A program made the position numbers and the translations under genes. A stretch of DNA of 64,000 nt, taken from NCBI GenBank assembly GCA_965197415.1, contig OZ240207.1, forward strand, positions 2,858,957 to 2,922,956, read 5' to 3'. The notes beneath the pieces are model-generated. The model saw only the letters and a program-made list of their open reading frames with translations, did not search any database and was not told where the DNA came from. Origin of the DNA: Dehalococcoidia bacterium. GTDB taxonomy: Bacteria > Chloroflexota > Dehalococcoidia > Lucifugimonadales > JAGWBF01. Shown here piece after piece: positions 2,387 through 36,036 of this stretch (its first letter is position 1; every line of letters starts with the position of its first letter).

Positions 2387-2700
2387 GCGTAGCCTCCTTG
2401 ACCACGTAATATCCTGCAGGCGCCTGCCTGCACTGACACTGGCCTAAAGGCCACACCGCTTTGCGGCGTGCGTGCGCATTACAGCACAGCTTAGTTGCAA
2501 TGCGCAAGTTTCCTTTTCATTCGGAATTTTCCAAACTGTCTTTCCCGTGGAAATATGCCGAAACGTCCCGTTCGCCTCTGGCGGGAGAAGGTTGGGCCGG
2601 CCCTGAGCTTGCCGAAAGGATGAGGGGGAACCTAGGACTGTCAGACAGCGCAACAGATAGCATGTGAGATTAGGAGGACCTTAGACCGGAATCCCCTGAG

Positions 2701-4038
2701 TTAAAGCTGAGGGAGGTACCGCTTGATCTCGTAGTCGGTGATTTGAGTGCGGAACTCGTTCCACTCAAGCTTTTTGTTCTCCAGGAACACCCTGAATACG
2801 TGGTCTCCGAGAGTCTCCTGGAGCAGTTCGCTGTTCTCGGCTAGCTTGATGGCCTCATGCAGGCTGCCCGGCAGAGCGGCTATCCCCCTGGCGGCTCTGG
2901 TCTCCTCGGACATGTCGAATACGTTCTCCTCGGTGGGCGGGGGAACTTCGTATTCGTTCTCGATTCCCTTGAGACCGGCCGCCAGCATCACGCTGAAGGC
3001 AAGGTAGGGGTTGCACGCCGGGTCGGGCGCACGGTACTCGATGTGCACCGAGTCCTGGCGTCCAGGTCTGTAGGAGGGGACGCGTATCAGGTCGGAACGG
3101 TTCTTCATCGCCCACGATATGTACATCGGCGCTTCGTGGCCTGGCGTCAACCTTTTGTAAGAGTTCACCCATTGGTTGGTCACCAAAGTGATCTCCGGTG
3201 CGTGGCGCAGCAGGCCAGCTGTGTAGAGCCGGCCGATTTGGGACAACTCCCCTGGGTTGTTCCGGTCAAAGAAGGAGTTGGAGTCCCCCTGGAAAAGGGA
3301 CTGGTGTACGTGCATTCCCGAACCGTTGACCCCTGGCAGCGGCTTCGGCATGAAGGTGGCGTAGACGTTGTTCTGGGAGGCCACCTCTTTTATGACCAGC
3401 TTGCTGGTGGTGACGTTGTCCGCCATAGTGATGGCATCGGTGTACTGAAGGTCGATTTCATGCTGTCCCGGCGCCGCTTCATGGTGGGAATACTTGACCG
3501 GAATTCCCATTTCGGCCAATGTCAGGACCGTCTCGCGCCGCAGGTCAGTTCCCAGTTCCATCGACAATTGGTCGAAATAGCCGCCTTTGTCGATGGCCTT
3601 GGGGTCTTCGGTTCCCGTGAGATAGAAGTATTCGAACTCCGGGCCAACGTAGTAAGTGAACCCGAGGTTGGATGCCTTCCTCACGTTCCTCTTAAGGACG
3701 AATCTTGGGTCTCCCTCGAACGGATCGCCAGTGGGCTTGTGTATGTCGCAGAACATCCTCGCCACCGAGTTCTGACGAGGCCGCCAACTGAGTATGCGGA
3801 ACGTGGTTGGGTCGGGTCGGGCCACCATGTCGCTTTCGTCTATGCGAACGAAACCCTCGATGGACGAGCCATCAAACGCAACCCCTTGCTCCAGGGCATC
3901 CTCAAGCTCCTCCACGGTGATGGCGAAACCCTTAAGGGCGCCCAGGATGTCGCAGAACCAGAGCCGGATGAACTTTACGTCGTTCTCCCGCGCAGTCCTG
4001 AGGACAAACTCTTTCGCTTCATCTTCGGCCCAAGTCAT
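2701..4038 (-). CDS. glnA: Glutamine synthetase type I, alpha-like form (445 aa, no adenylylation Tyr)
   Basis: Full-length GS-I-like translation (FDGSSIEGF, MPKPLPGVNGSGMHVHQS, NSYKRL, RAPDPACNPYL). The position of the adenylylation motif reads NVFDMS (Phe, not Tyr). Confidence 0.93.
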   Translation of the reverse strand: MTWAEDEAKEFVLRTARENDVKFIRLWFCDILGALKGFAITVEELEDALEQGVAFDGSSIEGFVRIDESDMVARPDPTTFRILSWRPRQNSVARMFCDIHKPTGDPFEGDPRFVLKRNVRKASNLGFTYYVGPEFEYFYLTGTEDPKAIDKGGYFDQLSMELGTDLRRETVLTLAEMGIPVKYSHHEAAPGQHEIDLQYTDAITMADNVTTSKLVIKEVASQNNVYATFMPKPLPGVNGSGMHVHQSLFQGDSNSFFDRNNPGELSQIGRLYTAGLLRHAPEITLVTNQWVNSYKRLTPGHEAPMYISWAMKNRSDLIRVPSYRPGRQDSVHIEYRAPDPACNPYLAFSVMLAAGLKGIENEYEVPPPTEENVFDMSEETRAARGIAALPGSLHEAIKLAENSELLQETLGDHVFRVFLENKKLEWNEFRTQITDYEIKRYLPQL

Positions 4039-4117
4039 AACCGATTCTCCGGTAGAGGTCTCCGATTGGGGAATATTGGGTTACGTATCGAGGATTGGCC
4101 GTCGCCAGGGATAAAGT

Positions 4118-4156
4118 GCGGCAGGCTTGGGATTAGGACCCCGTAGGGCCTGCCGC
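4118..4156 (-). terminator. GC-rich hairpin downstream of the 474-aa glnA (9-bp stem GCGGCAGGC/GCCTGCCGC)
   Basis: Perfect 9-bp inverted repeat at 4118-4126 / 4148-4156. On the minus strand it is followed by ACTTTATCC. It lies about 50 nt past the upstream gene's stop. Confidence 0.4.
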
Positions 4157-4160
4157 AACG

Positions 4161-4189
4161 ATTCTATTGACTGGCGCAGGTCGTGTCAA
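4161..4189 (-). promoter_or_regulatory. Sigma70-type promoter candidate for the 445-aa glnA
   Basis: The minus strand reads TTGACA (4189-4184), a 17-nt spacer, then TAGAAT (4166-4161). Confidence 0.5.
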
Positions 4190-4207
4190 TTTGGACGCCG
4201 AGTCGGG

Positions 4208-5632
4208 CTAGGCGTCGAAGTACATGAAGAACTCATACGGGTGGGGCCGTAGCCTGATGTTGTCCAGGTCGCCCTTCTTGTAGTCCAACCAGGTTTCAAT
4301 CAGGTCCTCGGTGAACACGCCGCCCCGCAACAGGAACTCGTAGTCGTTCTCCAGCGATGCCAGGGCCTCGTCCAAAGAGCCGGGCACCTGCCGTATCTTG
4401 GCAAGCTCTTCGGGCGGCAACTCATACAAGTTCTGGTCCACGGGGTCGGGCGGCTCTATTTCGTTTATGACTCCGTCGATCCCCGCCATCAGCATAGCCG
4501 AGAACGCTACATATGGGTTGCAGGCGGGGTCGGGTGCGCGGAACTCCAGCCTTCGGGCTGCCGGACTGGCAGAGTAGGTCGGGATGCGGATGCACGCCGA
4601 GCGGTTCCGCACGGAGTAGACCAGGTTCACGGGAGCCTCGAAACCTGGCACCAGCCGCTTGTAGCTGTTGGTGGTCGGGGCTATGAAGGCCAGTAGAGCC
4701 GGGGCGTGCTGGAGCAGGCCGCCGATGTAATGGCGGCAGGTGGCGCTGAGCATAGCGTAGCCGTTGGCGTCGTAGAAGAGGTTCTGCCCTTCCCTCCAAA
4801 GACTCTGGTGGGTGTGCATTCCTGTGCCGTTGTCGCCGAACAGGGGTTTGGGCATGAAGGTCGCCACCTTGCCGTACCTGTGTGCAACGTTCTTGACCAC
4901 GTACTTGAGTATCGTGACGGTGTCCGCCATTTTGGTCAGGCTGTCGAAGCGGACGTCGATCTCAGCCTGTCCCGCCGTAGCGACCTCGTGGTGGTGTTTC
5001 TCGACGATGATGCCGAACCGCTCTATTTCCTGAACGGCCTCCGTGCGTATGTCCTGGAAGGTGTCGAACGGGGGCGTCGGGAAGTAGCCTTCCTTGTGGC
5101 GAGGCCTGTAGGCCAGGTTGCGGCCACCGTCCACTGTACCGGGCTGGCCTGAGTTCCATATCCCTTCATCCGAATCGATGAAGTAGTAGCCTTCATTGCT
5201 GGTCTGGTTGAACCTGGCCGAGTCGAAGATGAAGAACTCCGGTTCCGGCCCCCAGTAGCTTACGTCGGCAATGCCGGAACTCTTGAGGTACTCCTCCGCC
5301 TTGTGGGCGACGTTGCGCGGGTCCCGGGTGAAGGTGTCCCGCGTCACCGGGTCCAGGATGTCGCAAATCATGGTCAAGGTCGGCGCCTTGAAGAAGGGGT
5401 CCATGTTGGCGGTGGTCGTGTCGGGGATGAGAAGCATGTCGCTCTCGTCGATGGACTTGAAGCCGCGAATGCTGGACCCGTCGAACCCGTAACCCTCAGC
5501 CAGGTTGTCCTCGCTAAGCTCGCTCAAGGGAATGGAGACGTGCTGGAAGGTGCCCGGCAGGTCCGTGAACTTCAGGTCGATGATCCCTATCTTGTTGTCT
5601 TTGGCGTGTCTAACAACTTCTTCCGGGGTCAT
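4208..5632 (-). CDS. glnA: Glutamine synthetase type I, beta-like form (474 aa) with adenylylation-site motif
   Basis: GS-I motifs (FDGSSIRGF, MPKPLFGDNGTGMHTHQS, NSYKRL, RAPDPACNPYV). 'DQNLYELPPEE' matches the NLYDLP adenylylation loop of GSI-beta. Confidence 0.95.
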   Translation of the reverse strand: MTPEEVVRHAKDNKIGIIDLKFTDLPGTFQHVSIPLSELSEDNLAEGYGFDGSSIRGFKSIDESDMLLIPDTTTANMDPFFKAPTLTMICDILDPVTRDTFTRDPRNVAHKAEEYLKSSGIADVSYWGPEPEFFIFDSARFNQTSNEGYYFIDSDEGIWNSGQPGTVDGGRNLAYRPRHKEGYFPTPPFDTFQDIRTEAVQEIERFGIIVEKHHHEVATAGQAEIDVRFDSLTKMADTVTILKYVVKNVAHRYGKVATFMPKPLFGDNGTGMHTHQSLWREGQNLFYDANGYAMLSATCRHYIGGLLQHAPALLAFIAPTTNSYKRLVPGFEAPVNLVYSVRNRSACIRIPTYSASPAARRLEFRAPDPACNPYVAFSAMLMAGIDGVINEIEPPDPVDQNLYELPPEELAKIRQVPGSLDEALASLENDYEFLLRGGVFTEDLIETWLDYKKGDLDNIRLRPHPYEFFMYFDA

Positions 5633-5703
5633 TGAAGGTTCCCTCCTGTTGGATTTGCTTTCCGATATAGGGCATTTTGGAACAGGACCGTCCCCAGGGG
5701 CGT

Positions 5704-6957
5704 CTATTCCTCTTCATCCCCCGACCCTCCGGCGATGCCCACTATGGACTCGTCGATGGGGACGTAGGCTTCCTCTCCATGCTGAGACAGGTCCAACCCC
5801 TCTTCCTCTTGGGACTCATCGGCCCTGATGCCGAGGGTGTACTTGATGGCGACGAGTATCACGGCGGTGGTGACCAGCGCCCATCCCCAGGTGGCGCCTA
5901 TTCCAGCCAACTGGTACAGGACCTGCTCCCCTCGGGTGACGCCTTCCGCCAGTCCTCCAAACCCTATTCCTACGAATAGGCCGGTTGCCAAGGCGCCCCA
6001 AGTGCCTCCCATTCCGTGGACGCCCCAGACGGCCAGAGCATCGTCAACCTTGAGTTTCAGCAAAAGCTCGACGGCGCCATAACAGATGACCCCCGCGCCC
6101 AGGCCGATGATTATGGCGGGCATGGGTCCGACGAAACCTGCGGCGGGCGTGATGGCTACCAGCCCGGCGACGGCCCCGGAAGCCGCTCCCACCAGGCTGG
6201 GCTTCTTTCCGAATATCCAGGACATGCCCACCCACGCGCACATCGCCATAGCCGTGGCGGTGTTGGTGGCCACGAATGCGTTGACCGCCGTGCCGTTGGC
6301 GGCCAGGGCGCTCCCGGCGTTGAACCCGAACCACCCGAACCAGAGCAAAGCGGCTCCTAGCACTATCATCGGAACGTTGTGGGGAGTCATCGGCCGTTGG
6401 CCGAACCCGATGCGCGGCCCAATGACGAACGCCGCCACCAGGGCTGCCACGCCAGCGTTGATGTGGACGACGGTGCCGCCCGCAAAGTCTAGGGCTCCAA
6501 GCTGGAAGAGCCATCCGTCGCCGTGCCATACCCAGTGGGCCACAGGAGCGTATACGATGGTCACCCACAGTATGGTGAAGATCACGAAGGCGCTGAATTT
6601 CATACGCTCGGCGAATGCGCCGGTTATCAGGGCGGGCGTGATTATGGCGAACATGGCTTGGAAAATCATGAACGCCTGGTCGGGTATGTTTCCGCCTTCT
6701 TCGGCGCTGACTCCGTTGAGTCCGAACAATTTCAGGTTTCCGATAAAACCGCCAATGTCATTGCCGAAGGCCAGGCTGTATCCCCACAGCACCCAGACTA
6801 CGCCCACGATGCCGATGGTCATGAAGCTGTACATTATGGTGGACAGGACATTCTTTTGGCGCGACAAGCCGCCGTAGAAGAATGCCAGCCCGGGCGTCAT
6901 AAGAAGCACCAGAGCCGATGACGTTAGGACCCATGCTGTATCTCCTGAGTCAATCAT
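5704..6957 (-). CDS. amt: Ammonium transporter (Amt family), 417 aa
   Basis: N-terminal 'DTAWVLTSSALVLLMTPGLAFFYGG', 11-12 TM segments and a 'VHGMGGTWGAL' region. SD AGGAGG before the ATG. Confidence 0.93.
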   Translation of the reverse strand: MIDSGDTAWVLTSSALVLLMTPGLAFFYGGLSRQKNVLSTIMYSFMTIGIVGVVWVLWGYSLAFGNDIGGFIGNLKLFGLNGVSAEEGGNIPDQAFMIFQAMFAIITPALITGAFAERMKFSAFVIFTILWVTIVYAPVAHWVWHGDGWLFQLGALDFAGGTVVHINAGVAALVAAFVIGPRIGFGQRPMTPHNVPMIVLGAALLWFGWFGFNAGSALAANGTAVNAFVATNTATAMAMCAWVGMSWIFGKKPSLVGAASGAVAGLVAITPAAGFVGPMPAIIIGLGAGVICYGAVELLLKLKVDDALAVWGVHGMGGTWGALATGLFVGIGFGGLAEGVTRGEQVLYQLAGIGATWGWALVTTAVILVAIKYTLGIRADESQEEEGLDLSQHGEEAYVPIDESIVGIAGGSGDEEE

Positions 6958-7010
6958 GACAGCCTAACCCTCCTTTCCGTGTTCCCCTTAATGTTTTTCT
7001 CCGACAAGCA

Positions 7011-7044
7011 ACCCAGTCCATACCCGCAGGGGCATGGACTGGGT
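7011..7044 (-). other. Strong hairpin between the 29-aa sORF and amt (11-bp perfect stem ACCCAGTCCAT/ATGGACTGGGT)
   Basis: Inverted repeat seen directly in the sequence. Only a weak U-run follows on the minus strand, so a terminator or attenuator role is unresolved. Confidence 0.4.
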
Positions 7045-7072
7045 CAACGTTGGACTTATCTTGGTTTGGGTG

Positions 7073-7162
7073 TTAGTTCTTCTGGGCAAACTTTCTCGGA
7101 AGCACAACCCACAACGCGAAGAGTCCTACGAACACGGCTCCCGCTAGAATTGCTGGCAACAT
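7073..7162 (-). CDS. Candidate 29-aa single-TM small protein (MLPAILAGAVFVGLFALWVVLPRKFAQKN)
   Basis: ATG at 7162 is preceded by GGAGG 7 nt upstream. One hydrophobic helix plus a basic tail. It sits between the two amt genes. There is no homology evidence. Confidence 0.3.
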   Translation of the reverse strand: MLPAILAGAVFVGLFALWVVLPRKFAQKN

Positions 7163-7205
7163 CTTTCCTCCATCTCTCCGCTGTCGTCTTGATATGCATT
7201 CTGAG

Positions 7206-7268
7206 GGCAATGTGTTTCGGACATTTTGCATCGATGTTAAATCTTTGTTACATCCGAAACACATTGCC
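7206..7268. promoter_or_regulatory. Perfect 16-bp inverted repeat with a 31-nt loop carrying phased TGTTAC-like hexamers
   Basis: GGCAATGTGTTTCGGA (7206-7221) pairs with TCCGAAACACATTGCC (7253-7268). Hexamers start at 7213, 7224, 7235 and 7246. TGTTA-N8-TTACA lies at 7235-7252. Confidence 0.5.
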
Positions 7269-7288
7269 TTGGTCTTGTTTCCGCTTGC

Positions 7289-8638
7289 TTAGAACGTTGA
7301 GGAAGGCGGCGCGTCCGTGACGTAGGTTTCAAGCCCATGCTCGGACTTGTCCAAGCCTTCGAGCTCCTCTTCCCTGCTCGCCCGCACACCGATGGTCGCC
7401 TTGAGGCCGAAGAACAGGGCGAAACCGGTGACTAGCGACCAGGCCACGACCACGGCCATGCTTATAAGCTGGGAGACGATTTGCTCAGCGTTCCCGTCCA
7501 CGAGGCCGCTCACGCCATTGTGGCCCGCGGCGAATATCCCCACCGCCAGGAGCCCCCAAAGTCCAGAGAATCCGTGGACTGCGATGGCCCCAATCGGGTC
7601 GTCCACCTTGAGGACCTTTTCCAGGAACTGGAGCGAGAGCATCATGATGGGCGCCGCTATTCCTCCGATGACCACGGCGGCCCAGGTGTCCACGTAGGCG
7701 CAGGGCGCCGTTATGCCCACCAATCCCGCCAGGGCCCCGTTGCAGGCCATAAGGATGTCGGCCTTGCCGGTCTGCACCAGTTTGATGTAAAGAGCTACGA
7801 CCGCTCCGGTGGCTCCGGCGAGGAGAGTGTTGACAGCGTTCAAACCGATGGTGTCGCTGCCGCCGATGTTGAACCCGAACCACCCGAAGAAGAGTATGAA
7901 GGTCCCGATTATCACGAAGGGCGTGCTGTGGCCGGATAGGATGTTGGCGGACCCGTCGGCGTTGAATTTGCCGATACGGGGACCCACTACCATGCAGGCT
8001 GCCAGCGCCAGAAATCCTCCGACGGCGTGGACTACGCCCGATCCGGCATAGTCAACCGCGCCAGGCAGGTTGATGGCTGAAAGGTCGCCCAACCATCCGC
8101 CGCCCCACACCCAGTGAGCGTACAGAGGGTATATGAGGGCGGTCACTATGAAGCTGTAAGCCATGTAGGTCTGGATTTTGGTCCGCTCGGCTATGGCCCC
8201 GGCCACGATGGTGGCGGCGGTGGCTGCGAACACCATTTGGAACATCCAGTCCACCCAGTTGTCATCCACAAGGAAGAAGTTGGACGTTCCGATGATTCCG
8301 GCCGCCGAGGCGCCGGTCATGAAGGCAAAACCGAAGGCCCAGAAGGACAGGGACGCGATGGCAAAGTCCATGAAGGACTTGGTCATATAGTTGGTGGTGT
8401 TCTTGGTGCGTATCAAGCCGGCTCCAAGGAAGGCGAAACCCGCTTGCATGAAGAACACCAGGAAGGCGGCTGCCAGGGTGATGAAAGCGCCCAGATTGCC
8501 GTCCACTACGTTGATGGCTTCCTGGGTCTCGTCGTCGACCTGTGCGAACGCCACGTTGTAGCCGCCGATGATGCCGACGGCCAACAACCCGGCCATCATC
8601 AGCACCAGCGTTCTCCTCAATGATACATGTTTCAACAT
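7289..8638 (-). CDS. amt: Ammonium transporter (Amt family) with N-terminal signal/anchor, 449 aa
   Basis: Amt-like TM pattern ('FMQAGFAFLGAGLIRTKN', 'VHGFSGLWGLL'). ATG at 8638 is preceded by AGGAGG. The upstream ATG at 8680 lacks an SD. Confidence 0.92.
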   Translation of the reverse strand: MLKHVSLRRTLVLMMAGLLAVGIIGGYNVAFAQVDDETQEAINVVDGNLGAFITLAAAFLVFFMQAGFAFLGAGLIRTKNTTNYMTKSFMDFAIASLSFWAFGFAFMTGASAAGIIGTSNFFLVDDNWVDWMFQMVFAATAATIVAGAIAERTKIQTYMAYSFIVTALIYPLYAHWVWGGGWLGDLSAINLPGAVDYAGSGVVHAVGGFLALAACMVVGPRIGKFNADGSANILSGHSTPFVIIGTFILFFGWFGFNIGGSDTIGLNAVNTLLAGATGAVVALYIKLVQTGKADILMACNGALAGLVGITAPCAYVDTWAAVVIGGIAAPIMMLSLQFLEKVLKVDDPIGAIAVHGFSGLWGLLAVGIFAAGHNGVSGLVDGNAEQIVSQLISMAVVVAWSLVTGFALFFGLKATIGVRASREEELEGLDKSEHGLETYVTDAPPSSTF

Positions 8639-8688
8639 GGGCTCCCCTCCTACAAACCGATATTGGCGACTCCATTTCATTCGAGAGA

Positions 8689-8749
8689 TGTTACGGGCCT
8701 GTTGCCGTTTTGTTACTCGTCTGTTTCATGGGTGTAAAATGATTGTTAC
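8689..8749. promoter_or_regulatory. Array of six hexamers (TGTTAC/TGTTGC/TGTTAC/TGTTTC/TGTAAA/TGTTAC) at exact 11-bp spacing upstream of amt
   Basis: Hexamer starts counted at 8689, 8700, 8711, 8722, 8733 and 8744. The array lies 51-111 nt upstream of the amt start codon in the amt/rmuC divergent region. Confidence 0.55.
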
Positions 8750-8787
8750 GCAAAACGCCGGCCCATAGCCGAAGGAGTCAATCCACG

Positions 8788-10023
8788 ATGGAATGGATAG
8801 TGGGAATCATCGTAGGCCTGATAGTGGGCGCAGCGGCGGCTTGGCTGGTTCGAAGCGCACGTGCCAAGGGCGAGGCAGCGTCCCTGCAAGCTGAGCATCG
8901 TGTAGCGGTAGCTGGACTGCAGGCCAAATTGGAGCAATCAGATGAGGCCCAGGCAATTCTCGACGCCGCCAAGGAGCAGTTAAGCGAAGCCTTCAAGTCC
9001 ACGGCCAGCAGTGCATTGCAAAACAATAATCAAGCCTTTCTTACCCTCGCCAACGAAAACTTGGGGAAGACTTTGGAGACTGCTAAGGGGGAACTTGACC
9101 GAAGACACAGGGAATTTCAGGAGTTGGTGAAACCCTTGTCCGAAAACTACGGTAAGCTCAACCCCCAGATCGAATCCCTGACCACAAGGGTAGAGTCTGT
9201 TACCAAAGCAACTACAGAGTTGAAGGGAGCGCTTACAGACAATCGCCAAGTCGGAAATTGGGGAGAAGTGCAATTGCACCGAGTTGTGGAGCTCGCAGGA
9301 ATGGTTGAGTACTGCGATTTTGCTGAGCAGTCAACAATCGAAGGGACGGGAAGCATCCCTGATATGGTCATCAACCTGCCCAACAAACGGGCCGTAGTGG
9401 TCGACGCCAAGGCGTCAACGGCTGCATTCATGGAATCGCACGAAGCCGCTGACGAAGACTCGGCCAGCGCAGCGTTGACTAAGCACGCGAATGCGCTGAA
9501 AAGGCAGGTTGACGACTTGGCTAAGAAGAATTACGGCGCCAAAGTTGACGGCGCTCTCGACTTCGTAGTGATGTTCGTTCCTGGAGACCAGTTCCTAGCG
9601 GCCGCCCTCAGAGCTAATCCCTACCTCATCGATTACGGAATGCAAAAGCGAATCGCCATCGCGACGCCCGTATCGTTGATTTCTCTCCTGTGGACCGTAC
9701 ACAGCGGCTGGCAACAGGAGCGGTTGGCCCGTAATGCACAAGAGATAAAAACGGTGGGAGACCAGATGCACAATCGGATGATGACCTTCATCGGCCACTA
9801 CCAGAAGGTGGGCTCCGAATTGGGAAGCGCCGTCACTGCATTCAATAGGTCAATCGGTTCCTTTGACCAGTCCGTAGCCCCCCAAGGAAGACGTTTTGCG
9901 GAGTTAGTGACAGGCAATGAGGATGACTTCCCCGAAATTACGGCTATTGACGAGGACCCAAGGACATCCCGGTACGTTCTCGATGGACCGACCGCGGAGG
10001 AAGGCAAACTGGCGGCTGACTAA
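8788..10023 (+). CDS. rmuC: DNA recombination protein RmuC
   Basis: N-terminal TM helix, a long coiled-coil, and a C-terminal nuclease-like region ('PDMVINLPNKRAVVVDAK', 'VMFVPGDQFL'). ATG 8788 follows AAGGAG. Confidence 0.85.
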   Translation: MEWIVGIIVGLIVGAAAAWLVRSARAKGEAASLQAEHRVAVAGLQAKLEQSDEAQAILDAAKEQLSEAFKSTASSALQNNNQAFLTLANENLGKTLETAKGELDRRHREFQELVKPLSENYGKLNPQIESLTTRVESVTKATTELKGALTDNRQVGNWGEVQLHRVVELAGMVEYCDFAEQSTIEGTGSIPDMVINLPNKRAVVVDAKASTAAFMESHEAADEDSASAALTKHANALKRQVDDLAKKNYGAKVDGALDFVVMFVPGDQFLAAALRANPYLIDYGMQKRIAIATPVSLISLLWTVHSGWQQERLARNAQEIKTVGDQMHNRMMTFIGHYQKVGSELGSAVTAFNRSIGSFDQSVAPQGRRFAELVTGNEDDFPEITAIDEDPRTSRYVLDGPTAEEGKLAAD

Positions 10024-33656: not shown

Positions 33657-36011
33657 ATGACCACGGGACAGATAATAAAAAGCCCTGAAGTTCCCGATTA
33701 CAACGTAGTGGGCAGCAGGCCTGTGCGACACGACGGACCGGACAAGGTGACGGGCCGGGCGCGTTATGCCGCCGACACGTCCTTTGCCGACATTCCAGGC
33801 CCCGCGCTTCTGCATGCGAGGGCGCTTCGCAGTCCTCACGCCCACGCGCGCATCAAGTCTATAGACGCCTCCAAAGCCCTGGCCCTTCCAGGGGTGAAGG
33901 CAGTGGTCACGGCTGCCGACATGCCGGAGGTCTCGGCGAAGCTGTCGGAAATAGAGGAAGGAGCCGCCGTCAACTACGGCTTCTACAGCCGCAACGTCAT
34001 GGCTAGGGAGAAGGCGTTGTACAAAGGCCATACCGTGGCGGCGGTAGCGGCAACCAGCGCCCACGTCGCAGAAGAGGCGCTGGCCTTGATCGAGGTGGAC
34101 TACGAGGTCTTGGAGCCGGTGTTCACCGCCGAGGAAGCCATGAAGGACGATGCACCCATACTTCATGAGCGGCTGGTGACAATGGCCGACGCAGCCTTCA
34201 GAGGCGGCGGCTACGCCGATGACGACGTGGAACGGCCCTCCAACGTAGCCAACCATTTCGAGTTCAAGCTGGGCGAGCCTGAGCAGGGGTTTGCTGAGGC
34301 CGACGTGGTTGTGGAACGGGAGTACCACACCCGGCCAGTGCACCAGGGATACATCGAACCACACTCCGCCACCGCGTACTGGGGGACCGATGGGTTGGTG
34401 ACGATATGGACCAGTTCCCAGGGCCACTTCGCCCTGAGAGACCATACCTCCAGCATGCTTGAGTTGCCGGTGTCCCAGGTGAAAATCATCCCGATGGAAA
34501 TCGGAGGCGGATTCGGAGGCAAGGGGCAGGGCGGCTGCTACCTGGAGCCGGTGGCTGCGGTCCTTTCCCGAAAGACGGGACACCCCGTGAAGTTGAGCAT
34601 GACCAGGACGGACGTGTTTCTGGGCACCGGCCCGACGTCGGCAGGCCATATCAAAATCAAGATTGGCGCCAGGAACGACGGCAAGATGGTTGCCGCTGAT
34701 GCACGTCTGGTCTTCGAGGCGGGCGCCTTCCCCGGGTCGCCAGTAGCGTCGGGAACGCGGACTATTTTCGGCCCTTACGACCTACAGAACGCCTACCTGG
34801 AAGCGATGGATGTGGTGGTGAACACTCAGAAGGTCGCCGCTTACCGGGCGCCCGGCTCTCCCATAGCCTCCTTTGCAGCTGAGACAGTCATCGACGAGCT
34901 TTGCGAAAAGCTCGGCATGGACCCCATCGAGATGCGCTTGCTCAACGCTTCCAAGGAGGGGACACGGCAGGTGGTCGGGCCGGTGTTCCAGCGCATCGGC
35001 AACGTGGAGGTCCTCCAAGCCGCCAGGGATCACGACCACAACAAGACGCCGGTTTCGCCGGACGGTCCCGACGGAAAGAAGCGTGGGCGCGGGGTAGCCA
35101 GCGGCGCATGGATGAACGGCACAGGGCCTGCCAGCGCTGTGGCCTCCGTGCACGCCGACGGCACCGTAAGCCTTCTTGAGGGCTCCCCCGACATCGGGGG
35201 CAGCAGGGCCGTTGCCGCCATGCACGTGGCCGAGGTCCTGGGCATCGGCGCCGAGGACGTTAAGCCGGCCATCGGCGACACCGCGGCGATAGGCTATAGC
35301 AGCGGGGCTGGCGGTTCCGGTGTGACCTTCAAGACCGGCACCGCCGTCTACGAGGCGGCCCAGGACGTTAAACGCCAGATGATTGCCCGGGCGGCAACGA
35401 TTTGGGACGCTGACCCTGAGGACATCGAGTACAGTGACCGGGGTTCGCTGTCCCACAAGTCCGACCCGGAACTGCGAATGACTTTCGCGGAGCTTGCGGC
35501 CAGGTTGAACGCCACTGGCGGCCCCATTGTTGGAAAGGCTGCCGTCAATCCGTCGCGGGTGGGGAACGCTTTCGCCGTTCACATGGTGGACGTGGAGGTG
35601 GACCCGGAGACGGGAAAGGTGGATATACTGCGCTACACCACCTTCCAGGATGCAGGAACGGCCATACACCCCTCCTATGTAGAGGGGCAGATGCAGGGCG
35701 GAGCCGTCCAAGGCATCGGCTGGGCTCTCAATGAAGAGTATTACATGAGTGGCGACGGTCAGATGCTGAACTCCAGCTTCCTGGACTACAGGATGCCCAC
35801 TTCACTGGACCTGCCCATGATAGACACGGTGATAATCGAGGTGCCCAACCCTGGCCATCCCTTTGGCGTCAGGGGAGTGGGCGAAGTGTCGCTGGTGCCG
35901 CCTATGGCTGCCGTGGCCAACGCAATACACGACGCGATAGGCGTCAGAATGAACCGGCTTCCCATGAGCCCCGGGGCCATACTGGAAACCATGTGGGAAC
36001 AAGAGGGCTAA
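33657..36011 (+). CDS. Xanthine dehydrogenase/aldehyde oxidase family molybdopterin-binding large subunit
   Basis: 'VTGRARYAADT', 'HARIKSID', 'GGGFGGKG' and 'AYRAPG' blocks, plus the C-terminal 'NPGHPFGVRGVGE'. No FeS or FAD subunit genes are adjacent. Confidence 0.9.
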   Translation: MTTGQIIKSPEVPDYNVVGSRPVRHDGPDKVTGRARYAADTSFADIPGPALLHARALRSPHAHARIKSIDASKALALPGVKAVVTAADMPEVSAKLSEIEEGAAVNYGFYSRNVMAREKALYKGHTVAAVAATSAHVAEEALALIEVDYEVLEPVFTAEEAMKDDAPILHERLVTMADAAFRGGGYADDDVERPSNVANHFEFKLGEPEQGFAEADVVVEREYHTRPVHQGYIEPHSATAYWGTDGLVTIWTSSQGHFALRDHTSSMLELPVSQVKIIPMEIGGGFGGKGQGGCYLEPVAAVLSRKTGHPVKLSMTRTDVFLGTGPTSAGHIKIKIGARNDGKMVAADARLVFEAGAFPGSPVASGTRTIFGPYDLQNAYLEAMDVVVNTQKVAAYRAPGSPIASFAAETVIDELCEKLGMDPIEMRLLNASKEGTRQVVGPVFQRIGNVEVLQAARDHDHNKTPVSPDGPDGKKRGRGVASGAWMNGTGPASAVASVHADGTVSLLEGSPDIGGSRAVAAMHVAEVLGIGAEDVKPAIGDTAAIGYSSGAGGSGVTFKTGTAVYEAAQDVKRQMIARAATIWDADPEDIEYSDRGSLSHKSDPELRMTFAELAARLNATGGPIVGKAAVNPSRVGNAFAVHMVDVEVDPETGKVDILRYTTFQDAGTAIHPSYVEGQMQGGAVQGIGWALNEEYYMSGDGQMLNSSFLDYRMPTSLDLPMIDTVIIEVPNPGHPFGVRGVGEVSLVPPMAAVANAIHDAIGVRMNRLPMSPGAILETMWEQEG

Positions 36012-36036
36012 AAGTAGAACAATCTCAGGAGGAGAC

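Follow-up and report, generated by a model that had tools for sequence, protein, structure and literature searches.

Control of nitrogen genes by the OmpR-type regulator GlnR has so far been treated as an actinobacterial speciality. The a and b sites of GlnR share the consensus GTAAC and lie six bases apart; two boxes, i.e. four sites, are typical of GlnR promoters, and amtB of S. coelicolor carries three in its promoter (a3–b3, a1–b1 and a2–b2) (PMC10235972). In the GlnR activation complex, four DNA-binding domains are arranged head to tail around the –35 element, and the protein at the b2 site, downstream of –35, makes contact with the beta flap and with region 4 of sigma (PMC10235972). Here we analysed a 64-kb stretch of DNA (hereafter the window, meaning this whole stretch) from a Dehalococcoidia/SAR202-like bacterium of the phylum Chloroflexota, in which two arrays of GTAAC-like pentamers, arrays 1 and 2, stand in front of the ammonium transporter genes amt1 and amt2. 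The arrays are a real, conserved cis-regulatory element, and we consider it likely that they form the operator of a GlnR-type nitrogen regulator, that is, of an OmpR/PhoB-family winged-helix protein. Nitrogen regulation is essentially uncharted in Chloroflexota, a phylum whose SAR202 and related Dehalococcoidia are major inhabitants of the deep ocean and of sponges. A first-pass annotation, made from the window's sequence alone, knew of no such regulon in this lineage; in agreement, a full-text search of the literature, within its incomplete coverage, returned no description of an OmpR-type GlnR or a GlnR-box regulon for Chloroflexi, Chloroflexota, Dehalococcoidia or SAR202.

Array 1 lies within the 149 bp that separate amt1 from an rmuC-like gene of divergent orientation (ATG at 8788). 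On the amt strand it reads GTAAC-n6-TTTAC-n6-GAAAC-n6-GTAAC-n6-GCAAC-n6-GTAAC, the first bases of the pentamers being located at 8749 (GTAAC), 8738 (TTTAC), 8727 (GAAAC), 8716 (GTAAC), 8705 (GCAAC) and 8694 (GTAAC) of the minus strand. Together with the conserved A that follows it, each pentamer corresponds to one plus-strand hexamer. The first-pass annotation had described these hexamers as six words on a single strand, exactly 11 bp apart and 51–111 nt upstream of the amt1 start codon, and a direct check of the coordinates reproduced the description throughout: TGTTAC at 8689, TGTTGC at 8700, TGTTAC at 8711, TGTTTC at 8722, TGTAAA at 8733 and TGTTAC at 8744, upstream of an ATG at 8638 (minus strand) that agrees with the 449-aa gene call in contigs of sister strains. 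The rmuC neighbour upstream of amt1 is kept in the sister strains only; as the upstream neighbour is not conserved, the array belongs to amt.

A scan for phased runs at periods of 8–14 bp on both strands of the window, performed with three deliberately loose pentamer patterns, gave the same outcome with each of them, namely array 1 as the only run of at least three phased matches. For significance, a weight matrix was trained solely on the arrays of other genomes, the window and its 94% relative being left out to avoid circularity. The six units of array 1 scored 54.9 with this matrix; when the intergenic region was shuffled 20,000 times with its dinucleotides preserved, this value was never reached (maximum 12.9, z = 11). 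Array 1 is far beyond chance, and the coincidental phasing that the first-pass annotation had wished to see tested by shuffling is excluded.

The second array had escaped the first-pass annotation. It sits in the 331-bp gap between amt1 and amt2 and scores 32.7–36.1 (36.1 with the full matrix) though it was never used in training, compared to a next-best score of 7.1 in 128 kb, and it beats all 20,000 shuffles. In the order in which they are read on the minus strand, amt1, the gap, amt2 and the glutamine synthetase gene glnA are followed by a second glutamine-synthetase-like gene (4038..2701). The 71 nt of intergenic sequence between amt2 and glnA contain no array, so array 2 probably drives a unit made up of a small open reading frame (ORF) for a putative membrane peptide, amt2 and glnA, with glnA, judging from this arrangement, probably co-transcribed with amt2. 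Upstream of the second glnA-like gene there is likewise no array and just one good unit. The matrix scan of the window returned no arrays beyond these two; the third-best candidate (35985–36017, score 13), which falls on an ORF junction inside an operon, was judged to be a chance match.

Conservation was assessed by scanning with Amt1, each species being represented by one genome, which covered Dehalococcoidia and SAR202 at 94% to ~60% protein identity; L-numbers below (L001, L012 and so on) label amt or regulator loci from other genomes. A phased array of 4–8 units precedes the amt1 orthologue in L001–L006, L009, L015 and L020, so that the conservation upstream of orthologous amt genes on which the first-pass annotation had staked its proposal is indeed found. 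Array 1 is also kept in L084–L086, the closest public contigs, which stem from sister strains 94–96% identical to the window and are not its source. A second array follows the amt1 orthologue in L001–L007, L009, L015, L020 and L068. Both arrays recur before orthologous genes in about ten Dehalococcoidia/SAR202 genomes, and every relative's array is oriented like its downstream gene. Across 50 units from nine genomes, the consensus is G/T-T-A-A-C-A, with 0.8–2.05 bits of information at unit positions 1–6 and 0.06–0.22 bits at the five spacer positions. Words that are kept while spacers drift, here across genomes whose Amt proteins are just 60–72% identical, are the signature of a protein-binding site.

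These data bear directly on the notion that the repeats are coincidental, or reflect the structure of AT-rich intergenic DNA (its curvature, for instance), and are served by no dedicated protein. The G+C content around array 1 (0.48) is lower than that of the flanks, as this notion would have it, yet no shuffle attains the observed score, the window holds no other such run, and drifting spacers separate conserved pentamers. Conservation and shuffle tests together effectively refute this explanation, to which we assign next to no probability.

Beyond the class, amt loci spanning many phyla (898 kb in total) gave three-unit scores of at least 24 in Chloroflexota plus L030, L033 and L051 only. 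In L030 (Actinomycetota) and L033 (Saccharibacteria) the high-scoring array lies upstream of amt; in L051, an AT-rich Firmicute, the match lies upstream of an OmpR-family regulator gene and not of amt. TTAAC/GAAAC-n6 arrays before amt were noted in a Saccharibacteria metagenome-assembled genome (MAG; L033 1129–1161), an Actinomycetota MAG (L030 5863–5895) and an actinobacterial locus (L017 5881–5913). The L033 array hints that the operator type may extend into the candidate phyla radiation.

Promoter geometry, together with array 2, provides the strongest support from within the data, and neither had been noticed in the first-pass annotation. Of 31 arrays taken from Dehalococcoidia loci, 24 are followed by a hexamer of the form nAnnnT that starts exactly 10 nt past the last pentamer; 15 of these 24 are TAnnnT (per-position background, 4.7% for nAnnnT and 0.8% for TAnnnT), and several of the seven failures stem from the automatic choice of the last unit. 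Taken as the –10 element, this hexamer would place the last site at about –27 to –23 and let the preceding one overlap –35, with four sites reaching to about –58. The candidate hexamers of array 1 and array 2 predict transcription starts near 8667 and near 7191, respectively, each of which would give rise to a 29-nt leader, and, by analogy, the last array site would fall between –35 and –10, as it does in the solved mycobacterial GlnR activation complex. A promoter scan of 6900–8850 detected no consensus sigma-70 promoter, which fits activator dependence.

The same geometry could be read in the opposite sense, with a GlnR-like protein acting as a repressor whose sites at –35 to –23 block RNA polymerase until the protein leaves and amt is de-repressed. 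The sites do overlap the core promoter region, and actinobacterial GlnR can repress some of its targets, e.g. ald and icl, according to passages in PMC7886694. On the other hand, sites placed in just this way serve to activate amtB in the GlnR complex that has been solved, and a missing consensus –35/–10 pair is what one expects of activator-dependent promoters. We therefore regard repression as distinctly unlikely and activation by a GlnR-type protein as the better account.

Which protein would bind the arrays was addressed through the regulator genes of the class. OmpR-family proteins adjoin array-bearing amt genes in two Dehalococcoidia loci (L012 4685–5386 and L013 3041–3715). The regulator gene of L012 has an array upstream of it, and a second L012 array precedes a peptide-amt pair; in L013, each of three amt genes is preceded by an array, the last of these units continuing into glnB-glnA. 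Three further contexts run from glutamate-synthase subunits, followed in some cases by an NrpR-like gene, through the regulator and an array of the form GTAAC-n6-TTAAC-n6-GTAAT-n6-GAAAC to amt, a P-II gene and glnA. The best Protein Data Bank matches of the L012 and L013 proteins were 8HIG, 8HIH and 8HML (GlnR; E = 1e-30 to 1e-31), and RegX3, PrrA and MtrA ranked behind them; the margin is small for L013 (108 vs 100 bits), and the order is a ranking by similarity rather than a phylogeny. Of the three entries, 8HIH (the M. tuberculosis GlnR activation complex) and 8HML (the DNA-binding domain of S. erythraea GlnR on DNA) are GlnR structures (PMC10235972), and the residue numbering of 8HIG is that given for S. 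erythraea GlnR in the same paper. The L013 protein has thousands of relatives, and a profile of the family retrieved 2,526 representatives at E <= 1e-30, some members being 43–53% identical to actinobacterial GlnR over 130–190 residues.

Seven candidate members were inspected (the L012 and L013 proteins, P0119, P0105, P0111, P0182 and P0302). The C-terminal winged-helix domain Trans_reg_C was recovered in the candidates at E = 1e-25 to 1e-28 (Pfam), with the Pfam Response_reg domain below threshold or absent; the L012 and L013 regulators, too, have Trans_reg_C and no significant receiver match. Equivalents of PhoB E9, D10, T83 and K105 were not conserved among the top 150 representatives or among 117 SAR202-type members. 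Judged by these alignments, the receiver domain of the GlnR-like family has lost its phosphorylation pocket. In the amt-linked subfamily, the phospho-Asp position is occupied by an invariant Glu (position 52 of P0002 in alignment A1, comprising 45 Chloroflexota GlnR-like proteins). In classical regulators, Glu at this position often mimics phosphorylation. No histidine kinase gene adjoins the regulator in L012, L013, L081, L087, L088 or L089, and no autoregulatory array was found upstream of the orphan regulator gene of L089. Long-read assemblies are the main source of a second subgroup (P0182, P0302), an orphan in the single context that was read; this subgroup includes MDP6402210.1, labelled as SAR202 cluster bacterium, and two MAG proteins labelled as Chloroflexi bacterium (MXY45997.1 and MYC05968.1), which we take to derive from sponge metagenomes. 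GlnR-like orphans of the OmpR family, for which the first-pass annotation had recommended a search, are thus present in Dehalococcoidia, including a SAR202-labelled protein, and several adjoin array-bearing amt genes.

Several observations weigh against a GlnR-type regulator acting on the arrays. As the first-pass annotation had stated, the window contains no OmpR-family gene, a result now obtained by tblastn with PhoB, a GlnR sequence and two Chloroflexota GlnR-like proteins as queries; the closest relatives, too, have no regulator gene within 6 kb of amt, nor do the 21-kb stretches of the sister contigs L084–L086 contain one. Protein searches and cluster look-ups for the regulator of this genome yielded no member on a contig that also bears a known array. 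The control of amt by a GlnR-like protein, as originally proposed, is supported by the conserved array, its matching consensus and the GlnR-like orphans of the class, the regulator gene of the organism itself being predicted to lie outside the window. At the level of protein families, the Pfam model GlnR_1st (PF21695) scored just under its cutoff of 27 in P0280, P0296 and P0182 (25.7, 26.1 and 20.9 bits, respectively), a near match for the SAR202-type subgroup (25.7–26.1 bits) that also counts in favour of GlnR, and did not match P0002 or the amt-linked L013 subfamily; NCBIfam holds no GlnR model, and matches to its models of other regulator families remained far under their cutoffs. Both Chloroflexota groups keep the base-contacting residues of GlnR (R186, V190, R193 and R194) with little or no variation, which is compatible with GlnR-like recognition, but the recognition-helix contacts (RTVDVHxRRLR) are identical in E. 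coli PhoB; because PhoB has the same residues, they do not single out GlnR and were rejected as proof of GlnR identity. A TTAAC-like phased repeat also occurs upstream of a classical response-regulator/kinase pair (L081 17315–17347, and the same in L083 9674–9706), and similar words may be read by other OmpR-family proteins in these organisms. Finally, array 1 has a weak –10 candidate whose sequence varies from strain to strain (TGAAAT vs TAAAAC in sister strains), with CAATAT (8665–8660) as an alternative.

Some of these points would suit a different OmpR/PhoB-family response regulator, i.e. a classical, phosphorylated protein (PhoP/PhoB- or MtrA-like) that answers to phosphate or another signal. 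Direct repeats of 11 bp are common to the whole family, the helix contacts and the L081 repeat just mentioned speak for it, and the repeats bound by B. subtilis PhoP are TT(A/T/C)ACA. In Streptomyces, moreover, PhoP and MtrA bind nitrogen-gene promoters, as passages in PMC2691820 and PMC9151340 indicate. Against a classical regulator, the arrays directly adjoin a GlnR-like gene in five independent genomes, nitrogen genes are the sole array targets seen, the linked regulator genes have no histidine kinase beside them, and neither intergenic region (8639–8787 or 6958–7288) contains the pho-box core TGTCA. We consider such a protein unlikely to be the one that reads the arrays, and retain a GlnR-type regulator as the probable one.

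Nitrogen regulators of other families were also weighed, namely MerR-type GlnR/TnrA (TGTNA-N7-TNACA), NtcA (GTA-N8-TAC) and NrpR (GGAA-N6-TTCC). The plus-strand words begin with TGT-A like TnrA half-sites, and NrpR-like genes adjoin the GlnR-like gene in L087 and L088; still, none of the three patterns matches in either intergenic region, and the repeats are direct rather than inverted, which leaves this option with a negligible probability. Genes of the NrpR-like type (Pfam NRD1_2 and WHD_RNase_R) were seen at L081 15628–16626, L087 6984–7997 and 15124–16119, and L088 104–1117 and 7207–8202, both next to the GlnR-like gene and where the amt-P-II-glnA-NAD synthase cluster ends. Two nitrogen regulators may therefore be combined in these Dehalococcoidia.

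With a GlnR-type activator as the binding protein, the locus could work as follows. One DNA-binding domain would occupy each GTAAC(A) unit, so that a head-to-tail row of domains with a step of 11 bp forms along one face of the helix. The four promoter-proximal sites would span about –58 to –23, with the last between –35 and –10, and at amt1 the two further upstream sites might add affinity or cooperativity. By analogy to the mycobacterial activation complex, the bound protomers would, through contacts with RNA polymerase, activate a promoter devoid of a usable –35 element. Nitrogen scarcity would then raise amt1 expression and, with it, ammonium uptake; through array 2, the peptide-amt2-glnA unit would be raised as well. 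The regulator would be encoded elsewhere in the genome, as a predicted orphan of ~225 aa with a receiver that is not phosphorylatable in the usual way. In this scheme, we infer the binding protein, activation as opposed to repression, the start sites and the nitrogen signal.

The small ORF that is the first gene downstream of array 2 deserves mention in its own right. A 29-aa gene is called at the same place in L085, and 13 further loci have homologous ORFs of 27–42 aa between an array and amt; loci with such an ORF include, beside the window, L001, L002, L004, L006–L010, L012, L013, L015 and L068. The product could be a conserved small membrane peptide serving as an accessory subunit of Amt, or else a leader peptide. 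The hairpin between this ORF and amt2 is kept in L084 and L086 and has no Rfam match. Array 2 is in addition bracketed by a perfect inverted repeat, which may be the terminator hairpin of amt1 or an inverted extra site; in L004, a similar 11-nt pairing involves part of its second array. An Rfam scan of 2400–9000 detected no glutamine riboswitch or other RNA element, and a sub-threshold SorX match (23 bits vs a cutoff of 46.6) was taken as chance. No P-II gene (glnB/glnK) was found in the window, nor after amt in the window's lineage (L001–L010, L012, L015 and L020). In other phyla covered by the same amt-locus scan, nearly all amt loci have an adjacent P-II gene. As to the sister strains, one of them carries an insertion sequence element (HTH_Tnp_1 and rve transposase genes; L085 4307–5481) between rmuC and a methyltransferase-like gene, and the gene caller broke amt1 and amt2 into fragments in the same contig.

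Features of the amt1–amt2–glnA region (window coordinates)
Feature	Position	Strand	Remarks
Array 1	8690..8749	minus	Six direct pentamers, period exactly 11 bp
Array 2 (GTAAC 7251, TTAAC 7240, GCAAA 7229, GAAAC 7218)	7214..7251	minus	Four sites, 11-bp period
Candidate –10 of array 1, TGAAAT	8674..8679	minus	10 nt after last pentamer; weak, without A at position 2
Candidate –10 of array 2, CAGAAT	7198..7203	minus	10 nt after last pentamer; predicted from the geometry rule
Shine-Dalgarno sequence of amt1, GGAGG	8646..8650	minus	Assigned from sequence
amt1, ammonium transporter, 449 aa	7289..8638	minus	Pfam Ammonium_transp, E = 6.5e-119; 449-aa gene call in L084
Perfect 16-nt inverted repeat bracketing array 2	7206-7221 and 7253-7268		Promoter-proximal arm includes the GAAAC site
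Small ORF, 29 aa, MLPAILAGAVFVGLFALWVVLPRKFAQKN	7073..7162	minus	One predicted membrane helix, basic tail; GGAGG 5 nt upstream
Hairpin, 15-bp stem, no T tail	7011..7044		Between small ORF and amt2
amt2, ammonium transporter, 417 aa	5704..6957	minus	Pfam Ammonium_transp, E = 1.1e-129; downstream of array 2
glnA, glutamine synthetase	4208..5632	minus	Pfam Gln-synt_N and Gln-synt_C; 71 nt after amt2

GlnR-type nitrogen control probably also operates in Chloroflexota. For a broader proposition we see about even chances, namely that an OmpR-type GlnR is the main transcriptional nitrogen switch of Dehalococcoidia, working with the same GTAAC-n6 operator and activation geometry, through a pseudo-receiver that is dead to phosphorylation and has an invariant Glu in one subfamily; in the window's lineage, it would manage without an amt-linked P-II protein and instead drive a conserved membrane peptide of ~30 aa along with amt. 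If true, this would suggest a system that either predates the split between Actinobacteria and Chloroflexota or was transferred between them long ago, and the GlnR activation geometry, solved only for mycobacteria, would extend to a second phylum. A matrix scan of any Dehalococcoidia genome would then predict its nitrogen regulon, and the family would offer a naturally occurring set of receivers that function independently of phosphorylation. The mechanism itself is not new in kind; the value lies in its extension to a new phylum and in a question that has been made testable.

How closely, then, does the locus resemble described systems? Among these, the PhoB/PhoP pho boxes share direct 11-bp repeats with the arrays and, as is predicted for these, are bound by an OmpR-family winged helix and replace the –35 region. 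They differ in their core (TGTCA in E. coli, not TGTTAC) and in their targets (phosphate, not nitrogen genes), and the array-linked regulator has neither a kinase partner nor a phosphorylation pocket. MtrA, for its part, binds GlnR-box-like repeats. In Streptomyces it is an OmpR-family repressor of the same nitrogen-metabolism genes as GlnR, according to passages in PMC9151340. It differs in being a classical phosphorylated regulator with the kinase MtrB, and the present arrays have no pair of this kind linked to them.

The closest resemblance is to actinobacterial GlnR boxes. The first-pass annotation had cited such boxes upstream of amtB and glnA, and GTAAC(A) followed by n5/6 is indeed the published consensus of the GlnR a and b sites (PMC10235972). 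The window and the GlnR systems have in common the word GTAAC/GAAAC, spacers of 6 nt and direct head-to-tail repeats; both have four sites as a core and six at amt, both target amt and glnA, and both lack a good –35 element, with the last site between –35 and –10 (in the window, as predicted from the geometry). The agreement accordingly comprises the type of pentamer, the 11-bp direct repeats with n6, the number of sites and their position at nitrogen-gene promoters. What sets the window apart is the host, which belongs to Chloroflexota (Dehalococcoidia/SAR202-like) and not to Actinobacteria, a glnK/P-II gene missing after amt in its lineage, and the invariant Glu at the phospho-Asp position in one regulator subfamily; the Chloroflexota candidates, moreover, are just ~40–50% identical to GlnR over 150–190 aa.

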